Shown: positions 1,843 to 56,055, counted from the stretch's first letter. The stretch: 64,000 nucleotides of DNA from an uncultured bacterium (GCA_963718575.1 OY970358.1:578172-642171), one strand, 5' to 3'. A program made the numbers and translations. Notes: a model not told the origin generated them from the letters alone.

Positions 1843-2684
1843 ATGCATAGCCTTGAAAACAAAGAAATTCCGAGCGAGATTAGGGGTTGGAACTGGGGCG
1901 CATTTTTCCTGTCTTGGATTTGGGGTCTCGGCAACAATACCTATATCGCCCTCCTAGCGTTAATACCAATCGTCAATCTCGTTTTTATTTTTATCCTTGG
2001 AGCGAAGGGCAACGAGTGGGCATGGAAAAATAAAAACTGGAAAAGTGTCGAGGATTTTAAGGACGCTCAGCGCAAATGGCGCAACGCTGGATGGATTGTG
2101 TGGGGAATATCCATCTTGATTGTTCTGGCTGTAATAATCGGCGCGGCTTCTGAACGGCCCAGAATAATTCTCCGGCGGCATATCAGCCACCGCAGCAGAC
2201 AACTCAATCCGTGCCGCAAGCACCACAAACAGAAACTCCGCAACAGTTCTTTGGGGGTACATCAAATCAACCACAATCTTCGCAAGGTGCGTCAAACGAG
2301 GGTGCAACGCTCCAACAATCATCAGAAGACGGTCCTACCGCCCCGCCTTGGCCAACATCATACAACGCAACGATCGTGGAATCATATTCTTCGGGTGTCT
2401 ATAACGCCAATTACTACGTTACGTTTGATAATAAAACTTACGTTGCAAATTCTACCCAATACGTTCTTGCTGGCTTTGAAAAATATCCAATCAGCGATAT
2501 TCATCCATGGGGAGAGGTGTATATGTCGTTTTCTTGTGCGGATCAATATGAAGCAAACTACGCAGTAACCGATGCTTCTTCCGTCTATCCCTACAATACT
2601 CCGTGGATGCAAGGCGGTATCAATGGTATCGACTTATCGAATAATGAGCCAAACGAAGTTTCCTTTACTTGTGTTCAAAATTGA
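1843..2684 (+). pseudogene. Membrane-anchored secreted protein split by an apparent single-nucleotide frameshift near 2150-2155.
   Basis: The frame of ORF 1843 has a membrane N-terminus (GWNWGAFFLSWIWG...ILIVLAVIIGAAS), then degenerates into Arg/His-rich nonsense. The frame of ORF 2211 opens at 2154 as a Q/P/T-rich linker (TAQNNSPAAYQPPQQTTQSVPQAPQ...) followed by a globular C-terminal domain. Confidence 0.4.
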
Positions 2685-2921
2685 TCCGTTTCCGATAGGG
2701 ATTAAAGTCGGCTCCATTTAATTTCTCTGATTGTGTAGATATGGCCCAACTCTGGTTTGTCTCCGCGTTTGATTGAAAATTGAGACTGAAATTTTTGTCC
2801 CGATAGGTTTTCGTATTCAAAAATCGCGGTCACTTCTTGCCCATAATTTATATTATTAAAAACAATCGTTGGAGCTATCGCACTATTTCCAGATTGAATC
2901 GGATTAACTGGGCCGGAAAAA

Positions 2922-3140
2922 TTAAAGAAGTTCTGTTATTTGCGATGGACAATGACCACTTTTCTCCGTAATGTTTCTGGCGGTTGTTGTTCCAATATTG
3001 CGTAATGCGAAGTATGGATAGGAAGAAACCAATGTTAAGCGTGGTTCTTGTCCTGTCCTAAAGGCTCTTACGGCATAAGTGGCCGCAATCGCAGAGGCGC
3101 ACAATGCTAAAACACCAACGATTAGATTTGCAATGTTCAT
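2922..3140 (-). CDS. Small membrane or secreted protein.
   Basis: ORF track. Hydrophobic N-terminus. ATGA overlap with the upstream ORF 3137-3370. Confidence 0.3.
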   Translation of the reverse strand: MNIANLIVGVLALCASAIAATYAVRAFRTGQEPRLTLVSSYPYFALRNIGTTTARNITEKSGHCPSQITELL

Positions 3141-3370: not shown

Positions 3371-3974
3371 GTCCGTACATACTCCCGAATGTTAGGTTTT
3401 GTGAGGTTCTCACTTCCTATTGCCCTAGCCGTAGCCCTATTTTCGGGGCTTGTAAGCCCTCATAGCGGCTTCCGTGGCGTTTCCCGTCTCAAGATACTCC
3501 TGCGCAAATTTCTCTTGTTTTAGGGTTAATTCTTCCCTCATTTGCCCTCATTTTACCATCTTTCTACGATGTAAGAAAAGTCGGTCTTAGCGATGTTAGA
3601 AAACTCCATTTTTTGCCGCTTTATTATTAGATAGTTTTTTTGAAGATATGGAGATTGGCCACACTTTTTTCAAGTGGCTAGCCACTTGCCGCCCCGAAGC
3701 CGAAGAAAAAAGCTAAATCACGAAGATGGTTTTTTCCGTTTTAAGATATATATTAACCTCTTAAGGCGAGAACGCCATTTACCATTGGGGTAAAAGTGAT
3801 ATTTTTTATTACTGTGTAGTTCGTAGATATAGAACTTATAAACATCTTCTGGGGCTGGCTGCGGTGTAAAAGTAAACTCTAATCCCCAATCAGTTGACAG
3901 AAGAATTGCATATTGATTATTAGGTTTTTCAACTTCATTTCCCTTTCCCCAAAAATCTCTATAGCCATATCGAG

Positions 3975-6267: not shown

Positions 6268-6296
6268 AGTGTATAGGATCAGAATAGGGTTGTCAA
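6268..6296 (-). promoter_or_regulatory. Sigma70-like promoter TTGACA-17-TACACT, 6 nt upstream of the transposase ATG. Suggests a leaderless transcript.
   Basis: Reverse complement of 6291-6296 is TTGACA. Reverse complement of 6268-6273 is TACACT. Confidence 0.4.
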
Positions 6297-6392
6297 GTCC
6301 GAATTGGGGATAACTAAATGGGGACATAATAGGGCTATTTTTTCCAATCTTGAACTATTGATCGATTTTGATATGTAGTATAATGTAAGCAC

Positions 6393-6614
6393 ATGGCATT
6401 AAGTTCCGAAGACAAAATCATCAAAGAGGGAGAAACTGAAAAGCAGGGATTTTCGGTTACTTTTACGAACGGCACACTTGCACAGCTTGAAGAATTGAAA
6501 GAGTTTTTTAAGAAAGCCGATAAGCTCGATGTAATAAAGTTAGCCATCTCGATTTTGCAAAATGCGAAGGAAGCGCAAGAGAAAAAACCTGCGCCGACAA
6601 CGCCGCCAAAATGA
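6393..6614 (+). CDS. Small hypothetical protein inside the element, divergent from the transposase.
   Basis: ORF track. A TATAAT-like hexamer lies at about 6378-6383. Confidence 0.35.
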   Translation: MALSSEDKIIKEGETEKQGFSVTFTNGTLAQLEELKEFFKKADKLDVIKLAISILQNAKEAQEKKPAPTTPPK

Positions 6615-13335: not shown

Positions 13336-13638
13336 TCATTCGAGCAGGGGCCTGTGAAGCATGGCTCTCACGACGACGATTCCCAGCAAAGCGACCATGA
13401 TCGTCGCTGTCACTATCGAGATGAGTATCTCTTTTTGATAGCCCCAATTTGGGAAATTGTTGTGATAGACGACGAGGCACGCCAGGAGCGTTATAAGCCA
13501 CCCGACGACAAGAAGCAACCTGTACGCGAATAAGCGACCAAAGAGCTCTTTCACCGCGTTTCCCTCCCGGAGAGGATAATAACCTATAAATATCGCCTTT
13601 TCAAATCCTCTTTTCGCGGCTTTTGTGCCACTTGACAA
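13336..13638 (-). CDS. Small membrane protein.
   Basis: ORF track. Two hydrophobic helices. Confidence 0.35.
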   Translation of the reverse strand: MSSGTKAAKRGFEKAIFIGYYPLREGNAVKELFGRLFAYRLLLVVGWLITLLACLVVYHNNFPNWGYQKEILISIVTATIMVALLGIVVVRAMLHRPLLE

Positions 13639-13716
13639 ATTTTAAGAAGTGGAGTATTATTATCAGGCAATAAAGAAACGTCGTCGAACTTCTAGAAAAG
13701 CAAAAATACTAATTAC

Positions 13717-13917
13717 ATGATGCAAGGAACTATCAAGACCCTTACGGACCGTGGATTCGGTTTTATCGCGCGCGATGGCGAAGCGAAAGACCTTTTCTTC
13801 CACTCCAAGGAGTTGAATGGTGTCGCATTTGATGATCTTAAGGTTGGCGATGTCGTCACTTTCGAGGTTATCGAAGGCGAAAAGGGCCCGGCCGCGACGA
13901 ACGTCAGCCGCGTCTAG
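13717..13917 (+). CDS. cspA: Cold-shock protein (CspA family).
   Basis: GTIKTLTDRGFGFI...DLFFH: the RNP motifs of the cold-shock domain. Confidence 0.85.
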   Translation: MMQGTIKTLTDRGFGFIARDGEAKDLFFHSKELNGVAFDDLKVGDVVTFEVIEGEKGPAATNVSRV

Positions 13918-13934
13918 TCTCACCAAAACAAAAA

Positions 13935-19644: not shown

Positions 19645-19962
19645 TCAATCGCCCGGTACGGATTGTAACGGAGGGGTCTCCGCGCCGCCCTTTTTATTTT
19701 TAAGGATTCTGATGGAGCGGCATGCCGGAGAGGTACATTCCTGCACCGTGGCGAGGGTGTCTCGATGACAACATGGACAGGTGGTTAAGATGGTGTGAGC
19801 GATCAGAAGGTCGAGCTTGGTCAGAAGGTTTCTCAAACGGCGGATAACTCCGACCATCAATCCGATAACCATTAATACCAATACAAACATGACGGCATGG
19901 TATTGCGGGAAATACCAAAGCCATCCGTCAGATTTCAGATTCACGAGATGTAGGAAGTTCAT
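19645..19962 (-). CDS. Small membrane protein with a CPCCH motif.
   Basis: Strong Shine-Dalgarno sequence AAAGGAGG 5 nt upstream of the ATG. Hydrophobic core. Confidence 0.4.
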   Translation of the reverse strand: MNFLHLVNLKSDGWLWYFPQYHAVMFVLVLMVIGLMVGVIRRLRNLLTKLDLLIAHTILTTCPCCHRDTLATVQECTSPACRSIRILKNKKGGAETPPLQSVPGD

Positions 19963-20021: not shown

Positions 20022-20474
20022 TTACCCCTCTCCGCCGCGAATTTCGCGTTGGTGCGTCCGTTTCTTGATCGCCTCGCGCTTGTCGGATTTCTTGCGGGTG
20101 CGGCCGAGGCCGAGCTCAAGTTTTATCAAGCCATGTTTGAGGTATGCGCGGAGCGGAATAACATGGAGCGATTTATCAATGAGCGCGCCCTGCAATTCTT
20201 TAATTTCATCTTTTGATAATAAGAGCCGGCGCACACGATCCTCTTCATAATCGGCGGGCGTGTTGCCCGCCTGGTATGCCGGGATGTGCGAGTTGACGAG
20301 CCACGCCTCGCCGCCGCGAATGAGCACGTGTGCGCCGGCAATCTGAAGCCGGCCGCCCTTCGCGCTTTTCACTTCATAGCCTTTAAACTCGATCCCCGCC
20401 TCGTATTTTTGCGAGATCTCGTAGTCAAAGCCCGCCCGGCGATTTTCCGCTATCGTGTCCGCTCGTTTATCCAT
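20022..20474 (-). CDS. smpB: SsrA-binding protein SmpB.
   Basis: IAENRRAGFDYEI...GIEFKGYEVKS...HIPAY...RRLLL is the canonical SmpB pattern. Confidence 0.85.
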   Translation of the reverse strand: MDKRADTIAENRRAGFDYEISQKYEAGIEFKGYEVKSAKGGRLQIAGAHVLIRGGEAWLVNSHIPAYQAGNTPADYEEDRVRRLLLSKDEIKELQGALIDKSLHVIPLRAYLKHGLIKLELGLGRTRKKSDKREAIKKRTHQREIRGGEG

Positions 20475-20573
20475 GGATTCATTCTACCTTAGTTGTGTTA
20501 AAAAATGATCAAAGAAATGGGCCCCGGCGAAATCGCGCGGGGCCCTGCGTCAGCTGTGGTACTATATGTAAAA

Positions 20574-20712
20574 GAGCAATGGGGGCGCAGTGGGGCTCGA
20601 CGGTGGCCAGGACTCCCTTCCAAGAGTCGGGCTCTTGAGACCCGCCGCCGGCATAGTTGCAACGCGCAGGGGCGGAGCGCGGTTCAGTGCCGGTTGCGCC
20701 CCACTGCTTGTC
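20574..20712 (+). ncRNA. Candidate structured RNA or cis-regulatory leader, unassigned family.
   Basis: The 5' end GGGGGCGCAGUGGGGCUCGACGG resembles the 5' end of tmRNA and tRNA-like domains. A 10-bp perfect long-range helix forms between 20580-20589 and 20698-20707. An alternative 8-bp pairing uses 20574-20582 and 20695-20702. Internal hairpins GACUC...GAGUC and GGGCUC-UU-GAG(A)CCC are present. Confidence 0.3.
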
Positions 20713-20744
20713 TGTAGGATGACACGTATGTATCTATTCTGTCA

Positions 20745-22454
20745 ATGAGTACCGAAATCATTCAAATTTTAAAGAGCATCTTCGGCCCAGACGCGCCGAT
20801 CGGGGTTTCGGTGCCTGACGCGGAACTTTTCGGCCACTATTCGACCAACTTCGCGATGCGCGAGGCAAAAGCCAAGGGCGTACCGCCTCTCGACCTCGCC
20901 AAGGAATACGCCGCGAAGATTGCCGCCGCGGCGCCCGGAGGATTCTTCTATAAAGTGGAAGCAGCCGCGCCGGGCTTCATCAATTTTTGGCTGAGCGATA
21001 AAACATTGCAAGGCGAATTCGCCGCGATCGCAGGAGATAAGAACTACGGCGAGAGCGCCGTTGGAAAAAGGAAGTTGGTGATCGTGGAATATTCATCGCC
21101 AGGCATCGCGAAGCCGCTGCACCTCGGGCACATGCGCACGACGATCATCGGCGCGGCGCTCGCGAACATCCTTGAGCTCTCCGGCTATCGCGTGGTGCGA
21201 TGGAACTATGTCGGCGACTGGGGCACTCAGCTTGGCAAGCTCATCGCCGCATATAAACTATGGGGAGAGAAAGAAAGCGTGGAAAATGATCCGATCGAAG
21301 AACTACAAAAGCTGTATGTTCGATTTAACGCGGAAATGAAATCCGATCCCGCACTTGAAAAGCGTGGTCAGGAAGAATTCAAAAAATTAGAAGATGGCGA
21401 TCGCGATAATCGAAAATTATGGGAGTGGTTCAAAAAAGAGTCATTGAAGGAGTTTAAGAGAATATATCGAACGCTCGATGTCGGGTTTGACGTATGGATC
21501 GGCGAGGCGTTTTTCGAGCGCGAGAGTGCGGATACCGTGCAAGAGCTATTGGATAAAAAGATCGCTGAGCACAGCGAGGGAGCGGTAGTGGTCAAACTTG
21601 AGGCATTTGAGCTACCACCGGCGATGGTGCAGAAGTCCGACGGCGCGAGTCTGTATCTTACGCGCGATATTGCAAACCTTCGCTATCGGATTAAGAAATA
21701 TAAGCCGGCAAAGATACTCTATGTAGTGGGCAACGAGCAGGCGCTTGCGTTCGAACAGCTTTTTGCGGTCGCGCAGCTGCTCGGATGGCACAGCGCTGAG
21801 TTGAAGCATGTAAAGTACGGGTTGGTGTTGGGCGAGAGCGGTAAGAAGCTTTCCACGCGCGAGGGCACGGCTCAGCTGTTGCAGGGCGCTATCGATGAGG
21901 CCGTGGTCAAGGCGCGCGAGGCGATCGAGGCGCGGAGCCCCGACTTTTCGCCAAAAGAAAAGACCGAGATCGCCTTTGCGGTCGCGCTCGGCGCGCTCAA
22001 GTATAACGACCTTAAGGAAAATCGCACGACGGACATCGTTTTCAATTGGGAAAAGATGCTCGATTTTTCCGGCGACAGCGGGCCATATTTGCAATACACC
22101 TATGCGCGATTGAAAAGCATTTTGCGCAAGGCCGGAGTCAGGGAATCAACGCTCCGGCCGGATGCGATCGATGTATCATTGCTCGTGCACACAAGTGAAC
22201 TCGCGCTCATGCGGAAACTTTTCGAGTTTCCCGATGTCGTCGTACGCGCGGGTGAGCTGTACTCCACGAGCACGCTCGCCGTCTATCTCTATAAGCTCGC
22301 CGTCGCCGCGAACAAGTTCTACGAGACGACGCCGATCTTGAAAGGCGAGGATGATGCCAGGCGCCGCGCGCGCCTCTTGCTTGTTGCGACCACCGCGCGC
22401 GTCTTGCAGAAAGGATTGGAACTCCTTGGGATCAAAACGCTTGAAAAAATATAA
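20745..22454 (+). CDS. argS: Arginyl-tRNA synthetase.
   Basis: Class I HIGH-type motif (PLHLGH) and overall ArgRS domain order. Confidence 0.9.
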   Translation: MSTEIIQILKSIFGPDAPIGVSVPDAELFGHYSTNFAMREAKAKGVPPLDLAKEYAAKIAAAAPGGFFYKVEAAAPGFINFWLSDKTLQGEFAAIAGDKNYGESAVGKRKLVIVEYSSPGIAKPLHLGHMRTTIIGAALANILELSGYRVVRWNYVGDWGTQLGKLIAAYKLWGEKESVENDPIEELQKLYVRFNAEMKSDPALEKRGQEEFKKLEDGDRDNRKLWEWFKKESLKEFKRIYRTLDVGFDVWIGEAFFERESADTVQELLDKKIAEHSEGAVVVKLEAFELPPAMVQKSDGASLYLTRDIANLRYRIKKYKPAKILYVVGNEQALAFEQLFAVAQLLGWHSAELKHVKYGLVLGESGKKLSTREGTAQLLQGAIDEAVVKAREAIEARSPDFSPKEKTEIAFAVALGALKYNDLKENRTTDIVFNWEKMLDFSGDSGPYLQYTYARLKSILRKAGVRESTLRPDAIDVSLLVHTSELALMRKLFEFPDVVVRAGELYSTSTLAVYLYKLAVAANKFYETTPILKGEDDARRRARLLLVATTARVLQKGLELLGIKTLEKI

Positions 22455-54484: not shown

Positions 54485-55231
54485 CTAAAGAGCCGGCGTT
54501 CCAGTGGTGGCTGCGCCTGCCGGGGTGGTGTCGGAAGCGGCTCCCGTGGTGGAACTTGCTGTCGAGCTTGGCGTCGTGCCGCCGGGCGGCTGATAGAATA
54601 TCTGTTCCGTGACGGTTGTCACCCCGCCGAGGAACTTCTTTGCCGAGATCTCGAACGGGTTTGGGCCGGTGCCGAGGAGTACGCCTTTCTGCCATGAGCC
54701 GTCGGCGGCGATGATGATTTGCTCGGTCTCGCCGTTCGCGCCTACGAGATAGAGCGAATCCGCGCCGCTCACCGTGCCGGACAATGTGACCGTGCTCGAC
54801 GTCGTCACGTATGGATTTGCGTCGGGGAATTGCACGACGAGCGTCGGATGGCCGAATATGCGCGGTGCCTGGAAGGCGAGATAGATGAGCACGAGAATTC
54901 CCGCACCGATCGCCCAAAGATATTTCGGCGGCGATTGTTTGATGAACCGGTTCCGCGGAAGCGTATCGAGCTCGCCGGAATTTTTAATCACTCCTTGTTT
55001 TTTTAATATCGTCCACCACTCTTCACCGTCGAATTCGAGGATCGTTCCAAGATGGATCATGTAGCCGTGGAAGTACGGCGCCGACGGCATGCTGTCGTAA
55101 TCGCCACGAAGCAGTGATTCGATGTGTGCCGGTGCGATACCCGTCATCTCGGCGATCTTCTTAAGGGAGAGGCCCTTTTCCTTCATCTTTTCCGCAAAAA
55201 ACTGTTCAAAGGGGATCTCGTTGGGATTCAT
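54485..55231 (-). CDS. RodZ-like protein: HTH (XRE) domain, then a transmembrane segment, then a Thr/Ser/Gly-rich extracytoplasmic domain.
   Basis: N-terminal LSLKKIAEMTGIAPAHIESLLRGDYD, followed by a single transmembrane helix. Confidence 0.4.
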   Translation of the reverse strand: MNPNEIPFEQFFAEKMKEKGLSLKKIAEMTGIAPAHIESLLRGDYDSMPSAPYFHGYMIHLGTILEFDGEEWWTILKKQGVIKNSGELDTLPRNRFIKQSPPKYLWAIGAGILVLIYLAFQAPRIFGHPTLVVQFPDANPYVTTSSTVTLSGTVSGADSLYLVGANGETEQIIIAADGSWQKGVLLGTGPNPFEISAKKFLGGVTTVTEQIFYQPPGGTTPSSTASSTTGAASDTTPAGAATTGTPAL

Positions 55232-55277
55232 ATATCCTGATGATAAGGCGCAATAAGAAAATAGTCCATTTCTAAGC

Positions 55278-55406
55278 CTGCCTTACATGAGGGCACGTTC
55301 CTTTTGAAAGGACGGCGTTCCGGTCTGCTGACCGGCCGCCTTGGCTCTCAGCGCCTTCGCGCTTCCGAGACACCTTTCAAAAGGAACGTGCCCTCATGCA
55401 AGGCAG
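55278..55406. repeat. Large imperfect palindrome. The 34-bp arms differ by one mismatch and flank a 61-nt spacer that contains its own palindrome, CCGGTC-TGCT-GACCGG.
   Basis: The arm ctgccttacatgagggcacgttccttttgaaagg at 55278-55311 pairs with cctttcaaaaggaacgtgccctcatgcaaggcag at 55373-55406. Confidence 0.75.
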
Positions 55407-55443
55407 AATAGCGCAAGAACTATTTTCTTATTACTTAAGTGAT

Positions 55444-55521
55444 TAAAAAAACACAAAAGACCTATTGCTAGGTCTTTTGTGTTTGATCCAACACAGCGCT
55501 GGAACCCGGCTTACCATCCGT
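55444..55521 (-). ncRNA. Candidate small RNA of about 75 nt, bounded by a promoter and an intrinsic terminator.
   Basis: On the minus strand, a TTGACG-16-TATATT promoter is followed by CGGAUGGUAAGCCGGGUUCCAGCGCUG...(stem ACACAAAAGACCU / AGGUCUUUUGUGU)UUUUUUU. Confidence 0.3.
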
Positions 55522-55527
55522 GATTTC

Positions 55528-55555
55528 AATATAGCAGGAATAAAATAATCGTCAA
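55528..55555 (-). promoter_or_regulatory. Sigma70-like promoter TTGACG-16-TATATT on the minus strand.
   Basis: Reverse complement of 55550-55555 is TTGACG. Reverse complement of 55528-55533 is TATATT. Confidence 0.4.
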
Positions 55556-55751
55556 ATATCTTTTAATAAAAATTTAATATTTCTTTAGGGCGGTGGAAGT
55601 GAGGGGTGTCGAGCCCCTTGGATCTGGATGGTAAGCCGGGTCCAGCAACCGTGCCACCCCCACCACGGAGCGAGATTAGCATATAGTGCATTAAATTTAG
55701 GTAAAGTTTTTGTGGGTAATATGGAACGATAAATGATGTTCGAATAAAGTT

Positions 55752-55785
55752 ATAAAAAACTGGGGCCACTAATATAAGTAGCCCC
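55752..55785 (-). terminator. Rho-independent terminator on the minus strand.
   Basis: CTGGGGC...GCCCCAG with a T-tract on the minus strand, downstream of 55789-56055. Confidence 0.5.
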
Positions 55786-55788
55786 AGG

Positions 55789-56055
55789 TTATGCCGCAAG
55801 CGGAAGTTCGTAGGGAATTTCTGCCTCTACTTCCGAGTCGATGTCGTTCCACCGTTCATCCTCGGGATCGTCCAAGTCAAGACAATAAGGGAAATGTTCC
55901 TTACGGACATGAAGCTTCCCGTTGCCGAGCGCGATGACCAATCCCTCATACTCATCGCCTGGGTCGATAGATTTCTGACAAATCTCGCAATGGTGTTGCT
56001 CTCGAGCGCAAGCGGTATAGGTTCTAAGTAAGCGATAGGCTCTTTTCTCTCGCAC
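55789..56055 (-). CDS. Small Cys/His-containing hypothetical protein.
   Basis: ORF track. HHCEICQ...FPYC. Confidence 0.35.
   Translation of the reverse strand: MREKRAYRLLRTYTACAREQHHCEICQKSIDPGDEYEGLVIALGNGKLHVRKEHFPYCLDLDDPEDERWNDIDSEVEAEIPYELPLAA

Follow-up and report, generated by a model that had tools for sequence, protein, structure and literature searches.

Introduction

In tmRNA, the product of ssrA, the 7-bp acceptor stem carries the G3-U70 wobble of alanine identity and leads into a discriminator base and CCA, and the T-arm is a 5-bp stem closed by a 7-nt UUCRANY loop that lies directly 5' of the 3' strand of the acceptor. In most of the Patescibacteria that we sampled (loci L030-L066 and many metagenome loci), the gene order smpB-ssrA-infC-rpmI-rplT is conserved. 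To our knowledge, CPR bacteria such as the Paceibacteria are uncultured and their non-coding RNAs are almost unknown. A search of the literature for a described smpB-upstream RNA or for peculiarities of CPR tmRNAs returned nothing relevant.

Here we analyse a stretch of 64,000 nt (the window) that belongs to the Patescibacteria (CPR), in a genome of Paceibacteria/Parcubacteria type, at a locus where this otherwise widespread smpB-ssrA-infC linkage is broken. In the clade to which the window belongs (SmpB at least 66% identical to that of the window), ssrA is not adjacent to smpB, and infC and rplT, which follow ssrA in the outgroups, were not found in the window. The spacer between smpB and the divergent gene argS had drawn attention in an original prediction, which described a GC-rich element with mutually exclusive long-range helices and a tmRNA-like 5' motif on the argS strand, and which considered a leader of argS, a small RNA or a degenerate ssrA remnant. 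Our comparative analysis suggests that the region is probably an independent small non-coding RNA gene, carried by the minus (smpB) strand.

Results

A GC-rich element separates smpB from argS

By SmpB, the nearest public relatives of the window are MAGs labelled Minisyncoccia, Paceibacterota and Parcubacteria, and contigs identical to the window were found in several soil and peat metagenomes, among them Ga0645787_3055 and Ga0439243_0002864. The features of the spacer and of its flanks are listed below, in the order of their coordinates; P1 designates the helix that would pair the two ends of the predicted RNA.

20022-20474, minus strand: smpB (Pfam match on identical public contigs)
20481-20486, minus strand: -10 hexamer of smpB, TAGAAT, 6 nt ahead of the smpB ATG
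20500-20518, minus strand: T-rich tail of the predicted second terminator, AUUUCUUUGAUCAUUUUUU (read from the sequence)
20519-20545, minus strand: predicted second terminator hairpin, GGGCCCCG-N11-CGGGGCCC, with arms at 20519-20526 and 20538-20545 (8 bp, 11-nt loop; helix search)
20557-20565, plus strand: extended -10-like motif TGGTACTAT, inside the conserved block ATATAGTACCACAGC
20566-20576, minus strand: U-tract and conserved tail GCUCUUUUAC, predicted first terminator signal; the tail recurs in relatives
20575-20596, minus strand: 3' strand(s) of P1, GCCCCACUGC (20596-20587) and its near-duplicate CCCCAUUGCU (20584-20575)
20597-20697, minus strand: GC-rich interior, folded into several predicted hairpins that differ among relatives
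20698-20708, minus strand: 5' strand of P1, AGCAGUGGGGC, with the family core GCRGYGG
About 20709-20712, minus strand: predicted transcription start
20716-20721, minus strand: weak -10 hexamer CATCCT, separated from the -35 by an 18-nt spacer (TATAAT, TATAGT or CATAAT in relatives)
20735-20740, plus strand: modest proximal -10 of argS, TATTCT (read from the sequence)
20740-20745, minus strand: -35 hexamer TTGACA of the candidate promoter, with a first base complementary to the A that opens the argS start codon (20745)
20745-22454, plus strand: argS (Pfam match on identical public contigs)

The spacer is indeed GC-richer than its flanks, as had been noted: its GC content reaches 66.3% at 20523-20712, compared to 56.1% for smpB, 54.1% for argS and 52.3% for the window. 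The element proper (20581-20712) has a GC content of 70.5%, which places it at the 99.4th percentile among the 132-nt windows of the whole stretch. The hairpin reported at about 20523-20553 was also recovered, with a small offset (computed at 20519-20545). A search for a second copy of the element, as expected of a MITE or dispersed repeat, found none in the 64-kb window.

Both smpB and argS carry -10-like hexamers located 4 to 6 nt before their ATG and neither has a Shine-Dalgarno sequence, with the same positions in relatives, which suggests that they are leaderless genes with overlapping divergent promoters. The spacing TAnAAT-6 nt-ATG at smpB (with TAGAAT or TATAAT as -10) is common to relatives with and without the element. 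Since a -10 hexamer just 6 nt before the ATG corresponds to the geometry of a leaderless mRNA, smpB would not need the promoter located further upstream. The neighbouring 105-aa gene (19645-19962, minus strand) has a strong AGGAGG site. On the other side, the gene that comes after argS (from 22913 onward in the window) is called as a 1187-aa protein on the identical public contigs L002 and L003; its product matches both tRNA-synt_1 (IleRS-type) and His_Phos_1 (histidine phosphatase) in Pfam, and may be a fusion or an insertion.

An equivalent element recurs upstream of smpB in related Paceibacteria

Loci around SmpB homologues, 160 altogether and designated by L numbers, were fetched from genome and metagenome scans. 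Within the clade delimited by at least 66% SmpB identity (members include OY970354.1, OY970382.1, OY970126.1 and CAWDZM010000001.1), an equivalent element recurs in the divergent argS-smpB spacer, and at least 27 distinct related Paceibacteria/Parcubacteria sequences carry one upstream of smpB. The family set used below consists of 27 distinct extracted elements, to which L018 and further units of L035 are additional.

The elements have a four-part layout on the smpB strand, composed of a promoter, a purine-rich strand, an interior, and a complementary strand with a T-tract or terminator. The -35 hexamer is TTGACA in most cases and shares bases with the start codon of argS, as CATTGACA, and the purine-rich strand of P1 (consensus GAGCGGUGGG) begins a few nucleotides after the promoter. 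The interior, about 50 to 170 nt long depending on the member, is followed by the complementary P1 strand CCCACCGCUC; next comes either a T-tract or the tail GCUCUUUUAC with a distinct hairpin terminator after it. In the window, the second P1 partner, CCCCAUUGCU (20584-20575), abuts the U-tract. The second terminator hairpin is kept in L007, L009, L029, L087, L092, L093 and L095; our terminator scan missed it in the window because the scan accepted loops of up to 8 nt and this hairpin has a loop of 11 nt. Weak Rfam terminator-type alignments on the minus strand span this hairpin and its T-rich tail.

Gene order and copy number vary among relatives. Complete units, each with its own promoter and terminator, occur in tandem in L011 (two) and L035 (four). 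In L035, a Candidatus Liptonbacteria MAG, the four promoter/clamped-RNA/terminator units (2200-2960, plus strand) fill the 800-nt argS-smpB spacer; an Rfam search of these units gave no match. In L105 and L107, argS lies upstream of smpB and in tandem with it, and the element is found between the two genes. Furthermore, the element is reduced to a plain 8-bp hairpin in L099 and L100, and is lost in L013, L014, L026 and L027. The TTGACA hexamer is also absent from the relatives that are devoid of the element.

A descriptor combining a promoter, a long-range GC-rich helix and a T-tract was used to scan 1.37 Mb (both strands counted), and about 22 of the roughly 36 hits fell exactly at this slot. 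Both the GC and the promoter constraints were needed, as a helix followed by a T-run was by itself too noisy a descriptor in AT-rich relatives. The other hits in the window are most likely due to chance. One of them, at 13632, corresponds to the promoter and 5' region of a gene coding for a cold-shock protein: the cold-shock-protein-like gene (MMQGTIKTLTDRGFGFI...) has the consensus promoter TTGACA-17-TATTAT in front of it and a clear terminator behind it (13632-13918, plus strand).

The terminal helix covaries and points to the smpB strand

The two competing long-range helices of the original prediction (8 and 10 bp) are both present in the sequence, together with a third register.

20582-20589 with 20695-20702: competing helix A, GGGGCGCA with TGCGCCCC, 8 bp
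20587-20596 with 20698-20707: competing helix B, GCAGTGGGGC with GCCCCACTGC, 10 bp
20575-20584 with 20699-20708: third register, AGCAATGGGG with CCCCACTGCT

Of 2000 shuffled sequences, none formed a perfect helix of 10 bp or more between its two ends, and 1.35% formed one of 8 bp or more. The folding energy of the single sequence is unremarkable (z = -0.96 for the plus strand and -1.78 for the minus strand), and the case for a real structure rests on comparative evidence.

P1 measures 8 to 17 bp in the orthologues. In L009, L011b, L017, L022 and L087, its sequence is unrelated to that of the other members, yet helices of 12 to 17 bp are formed. Covariation was tested on 20 members anchored on the core GCRGYGG. 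Paired cells amounted to 75.7%, compared to 65.4% in shuffles (0/500 shuffles reached this value); the P1 segments were chosen by hand around the core, which biases this test toward pairing, and its flanking pairs and register control nevertheless keep their value as evidence. Both sides had changed in 44 cells, against 21.9 +/- 3.9 in shuffles (0/500), and the covariation score was 0.388, against 0.214 in shuffles (0/500) and at most 0.17 in slid registers. Compensatory changes were observed in 11 of the 14 pairs of P1, the only helix covered by the test; MAFFT alignments of full elements were too poor for the structure of the interior. These results strengthen the earlier claim of an RNA-type structure, which the covariation of P1 across 20 homologous elements indicates to be real and under selection.

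Conversely, the proposed switch did not hold up across the family, as a simple scan found alternative partners in just two other members, L029 and L109. The window has three registers because its C-rich 3' strand is nearly duplicated (GCCCCACUGC-GCCCCCAUUGCU), and we regard the alternative registers as a probable by-product of G/C-rich low-complexity sequence, with a possible local role.

Several signals distinguish the two strands. A sigma-70-like promoter scoring at least 9 out of 12.5 was found just 5' of P1 on the smpB strand in 23 of the 27 members and on the other strand in none, for a background of 4.7% of random windows reaching this score. In most members, the end of the -10 sits 0 to 5 nt before the extracted element, a few nucleotides from P1. 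A T-tract (5 or more T among 8 nt, no further than 20 nt past P1) follows the helix in 24/27 members on the smpB strand vs 4/27 on the other. Furthermore, a strand-symmetric search for the best P1 yielded 17 G-U pairs on the smpB strand vs 6 A-C pairs, which would be G-U pairs on the other strand. Whole-structure energies and whole-duplex G-U counts did not discriminate between strands; duplex energies totalled -852 vs -839 kcal/mol and favoured one strand in 13 members and the other in 14. Together, promoter, T-tract and G-U bias indicate that the functional strand is the minus strand of the window, opposite to the one on which the element had been described.

The interior turns over in sequence and stays GC-rich

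The GC content of the interior averages 0.63, compared to 0.53 for the locus, and exceeds that of its own locus in 27 of 27 members. In relatives whose SmpB is 80-92% identical to that of the window, the four-fold degenerate sites of smpB are 47-74% identical, and the identity between their interiors and that of the window is at the level of shuffled sequences. By this comparison, the interior is estimated to diverge at least as fast as synonymous sites.

A k-mer search for conserved motifs in the interior revealed nothing beyond what was obtained with shuffles. Two candidate modes of action were rejected: an accessible C-rich seed, present in 14 of the 27 members vs 15.6 +/- 2.0 in shuffles, and a CsrA/RsmA sponge, for which 72 GGA were counted vs 69.6 +/- 6.2 in dinucleotide shuffles (z = 0.4). 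A tblastn search of the window for a CsrA homologue was also negative. These negative results leave the element without support for any particular mechanism of action.

A candidate small RNA gene upstream of smpB

Computation revealed a family of elements, the covariation of their terminal helix, and promoter and terminator signals with a strand bias. A small RNA, one of the options of the original prediction, gains support from the element's own predicted promoter, the covarying P1 and the T-tract, and we consider that the locus is probably explained by a small RNA gene that is independent and lies on the minus strand. Its transcription, its ends and any function that the RNA may have are predicted from these signals.

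According to this model, a sigma-70-type promoter, with a -35 hexamer TTGACA overlapping the start codon of argS, would fire and yield an RNA of about 140 nt, or of about 205 nt if it extended to the second terminator. P1 would clamp the 5' and 3' ends of the RNA around a compact, GC-rich interior. Transcription would terminate at the U-tract directly after P1, at the downstream hairpin terminator, or at both, and this termination would shield smpB's own leaderless promoter. As the promoter of the small RNA overlaps both the promoter and the start of argS, the firing of one should exclude that of the other. The tandem units, the persistence of the element where argS is in tandem, and the -10 that smpB has of its own all suggest that the candidate gene is independent of argS and smpB.

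Selection appears to keep four features of the element: its strong transcription, the clamp of its ends, a GC-rich and stable fold, and its termination. Because no loop or seed sequence is conserved, we infer that the RNA would act by its presence or its shape and not through a conserved base-pairing seed; it could for instance be an abundant RNA that resists nucleases, binds a protein or is of the housekeeping type. Several points weigh against a small RNA gene: the -10 of the window, CATCCT, is weak, the z-scores of folding are unimpressive, whole-duplex energies do not tell the strands apart, and the extended -10 at 20557-20565 lies on the opposite strand.

Alternative explanations

We consider it appreciably less probable that the element serves as a transcriptional insulator, the RNA itself being functionless and the strong divergent promoter either arising as a by-product of the argS promoter that it overlaps or acting as its partner. 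The long-range hairpin and U-tract would then stop transcription before it reaches the leaderless smpB promoter, and the interior would be a tolerated expansion of the terminator loop that need only fold compactly. Such an insulator would account for the restriction of conservation to the promoter, the clamp helix and the T-tract, and for an interior that is at shuffled identity despite four-fold sites of smpB that are 47-74% identical and that varies in length from about 50 to 170 nt. It would also agree with smpB being leaderless and having its own -10. The interior may be merely tolerated, judging from the plain 8-bp hairpin of L099 and L100 and from relatives such as L013, L014, L026 and L027 that manage without the element. 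However, an insulator would not be expected to occur as tandem complete units (four in L035, two in L011). Also against it, most members keep a near-consensus -35, although TTGACA-N17-TAnnnT occurs only three times in the 64-kb window, and every member has an interior about 10 GC points above its locus.

A functional plus strand strikes us as rather improbable. The element would then be either the 5' leader of argS, transcribed from the extended -10 TGGTACTAT (20557-20565), or part of a cis-antisense pair with the minus-strand RNA that would regulate argS. The motif TGGTACTAT is a perfect extended -10 on the argS strand, the block ATATAGTACCACAGC that contains TGnTAnnAT is conserved in the window's subclade, and TGnTAnnnT was read at this position in 9 of 17 long-form members, which suggests that the plus strand may also be transcribed. 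Moreover, argS lacks a Shine-Dalgarno sequence, its proximal -10 (TATTCT) is modest, and duplex energies are equally good on both strands. Conversely, a promoter scan found no -35 partner for TGGTACTAT, a -35/-10 promoter scoring at least 9 is present on the plus strand in no member, an A-tract precedes the helix with no T-tract after it, and the bias in G-U pairs (17 to 6) favours the minus strand. In L105 and L107, argS does not lie downstream of the element, which nevertheless keeps its place ahead of smpB. This gene order, and the lack of a plus-strand terminator or of a platform occluding a Shine-Dalgarno sequence after the helix, speak against the argS leader envisaged in the original prediction. 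No T-box or riboswitch was matched by Rfam in the 341-nt region or in 20 related loci, and the interior has no conserved sequence for binding a ligand or tRNA. The element is probably not a leader of argS, yet TGGTACTAT could drive an antisense or long-leader transcript.

More speculative, and in our opinion improbable, is the notion that the elements are a previously undescribed family of end-clamped, GC-rich RNAs tied to smpB where ssrA has left it, either under diversifying selection or acting as a new partner or regulator of SmpB and ribosome rescue, and not a generic small RNA. Its distribution would be that of one Paceibacteria/Liptonbacteria lineage, in which the interior diverges fast and units are amplified in tandem.

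A degenerate, permuted or minimal tmRNA remnant beside smpB is very improbable. The idea was attractive since ssrA is not beside smpB in the window's clade, unlike in most Patescibacteria. The plus strand reads GGGGGCGCAGTGGGGCTCGACGG from 20581, and its beginning, GGGGGCGCAGUGGGGCUCGACGG, resembles GGGGGCGAAAGGCUUCGACGG of the tmRNA of L031; at the 3' end, GGUUCA precedes a strand that is the complement of the 5' end, after which comes AC. The tmRNA-like 5' motif therefore does exist on the plus strand, but it is absent from the orthologues and lies opposite to the strand that carries the transcription signals. On the argS strand, orthologous elements begin with GGCGAGCGGCGAAGUUCGGG, ACGCGCGAGGGGGCGAGG and so on, without the motif, and among them a profile of tmRNA 5' ends retrieved L087 alone, at a non-significant E of 13. 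The features of a tmRNA are not found either: the plus-strand helix GGGGCGCA/UGCGCCCC has G-C instead of G-U at pair 3 and is followed by ACUG, the putative T-arm has only 3 bp (CGG/CCG around the loop UUCAGUG), and the element contains no tag reading frame. An additional candidate, a tRNA-like 3' end of the form NCCA after P1, was dropped, as it was seen in only 3 to 4 members, which are related, and the short forms lack it altogether.

Searches with tmRNA models agree with these observations. ARAGORN with default settings reported no tmRNA in the window, and with relaxed settings gave scattered permuted pseudo-calls inside coding genes only, with nothing tRNA-like at the element. The Rfam tmRNA model had no match at the gathering score in the window nor at E values up to 10 in the 341-nt region. 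Profiles of 5' ends, 3' ends and full-length sequences, built with nhmmer from 66 Patescibacteria tmRNAs, did not match the element of the window; the 3'-end profile left it unmatched at E values up to 100 while detecting the true tmRNA of L027 at 1.4e-4. In L027, a member of the clade devoid of the element, Rfam identifies a canonical tmRNA (E = 1.3e-9) about 2.9 kb away from smpB, so the clade has not lost tmRNA. For an element that lacks G3-U, a proper T-arm, a tag frame and a match to any model, the reading as a permuted or degenerate ssrA is already close to refuted. The L027 tmRNA is located at 6280-6432 (minus strand, opposite to that of smpB), and its 3' half was found by both the profiles and Rfam. 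In L038 and L054, a gap of about 400 nt between smpB and infC (about 3435-3842) occupies the usual place of the tmRNA, where ARAGORN reports none; these gaps may hold divergent tmRNAs missed by the finder.

Least credible of all is a protein-coding role, either through the 70-aa ORF at 20505-20717 or through a small toxin belonging to a type I toxin-antitoxin locus: ORFs of 52-70 aa exist on both strands, and the duplication in tandem, the pairing of the ends and an antisense promoter that may be present recall such loci, but there is no Pfam match, no conserved start codon and no hydrophobic peptide, and interiors are unalignable between close relatives, with length differences that are not multiples of three, so that the 70-aa ORF, though present, looks as spurious as had been supposed.

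Other candidate structured RNAs in the window

The Rfam search suggested in the original prediction gave no match to tmRNA, SRP or RNase P in the window or the region. More broadly, cmscan of the window, of the 341-nt region (E up to 10), of 20 related loci, of L035 and of 55230-55800 identified no relevant family; 6S, SRP, RNase P and Y RNAs were without a match in the window, the 20 related loci and L035. The element matches none of the 4227 families of Rfam 15, and in the window Rfam recognizes only a LOOT RNA and two tRNAs. The LOOT RNA (RF03000) is full-length, at 1120-1240 on the plus strand (92 bits vs a gathering score of 46), upstream of an ORF at 1308-1841.

Another part of the window is a 560-nt stretch with no convincing ORF. 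It includes an inverted repeat whose arms, each about 34 nt long, surround roughly 60 nt of GC-rich sequence (55270-55410), a strong hairpin flanked by A/T runs (55449-55486), and a 16-nt repeat, GGATGGTAAGCCGGGT, present in inverted orientation about 110 nt apart (55449-55520 / 55628-55649). A degenerate tRNA-like element was observed at 55592-55664 (minus strand), with an acceptor GGGGGUG/CACUUCC that has a G-U at pair 3, a T-loop-like CUCGACA followed by ACC, a promoter-like site upstream and an A/U-rich tail downstream. ARAGORN called it only at a threshold of 80% and Rfam gave no match; in style, it resembles the smpB-upstream RNA.

Discussion

The elements described here form a well-delimited candidate family of small RNAs, with more than 27 members, promoter and terminator signals and a covarying clamp helix. 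Their pattern is unusual in that the sequence of the interior turns over while its GC-richness and the clamp are kept. The locus also calls for caution, as a tmRNA-like 5' motif beside smpB can arise by chance antisense to another RNA gene.

With the tRNA-like domain of tmRNA, the element shares the adjacency to smpB and, in this one genome and on the plus strand, a G-rich 5' end, a UCGAC motif and a 3' strand complementary to it. The candidate minus-strand RNA resembles in its architecture the 6S, 4.5S/SRP and bacterial Y RNAs, which likewise have their own promoter, a terminal-helix clamp, a GC-rich body and a U-tract end; 6S RNA in particular combines low sequence conservation with a kept architecture, as the element does. 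The element differs from these RNAs in having neither a central bubble nor the conserved loop of SRP domain IV, and in its size of about 70 to 200 nt. The head-to-tail units of L011 (two) and L035 (four) are reminiscent of the rsmX arrays and of PrrF1/2, OmrA/B and AbcR1/2. However, those families keep a seed or a protein-binding motif, whereas the element has no conserved k-mer, C-run or GGA enrichment. Finally, the element is similar to the intergenic motifs obtained from screens based on GC content and length, of the type described by the Breaker laboratory (PMC8632094), in being conspicuously GC-rich within a lower-GC genome and in having a covarying helix, and it differs from typical motifs of this kind by having almost no conserved nucleotides outside the terminal helix. 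The LOOT RNA, found in the same window, is listed beside such GC-rich intergenic structured-RNA candidates.
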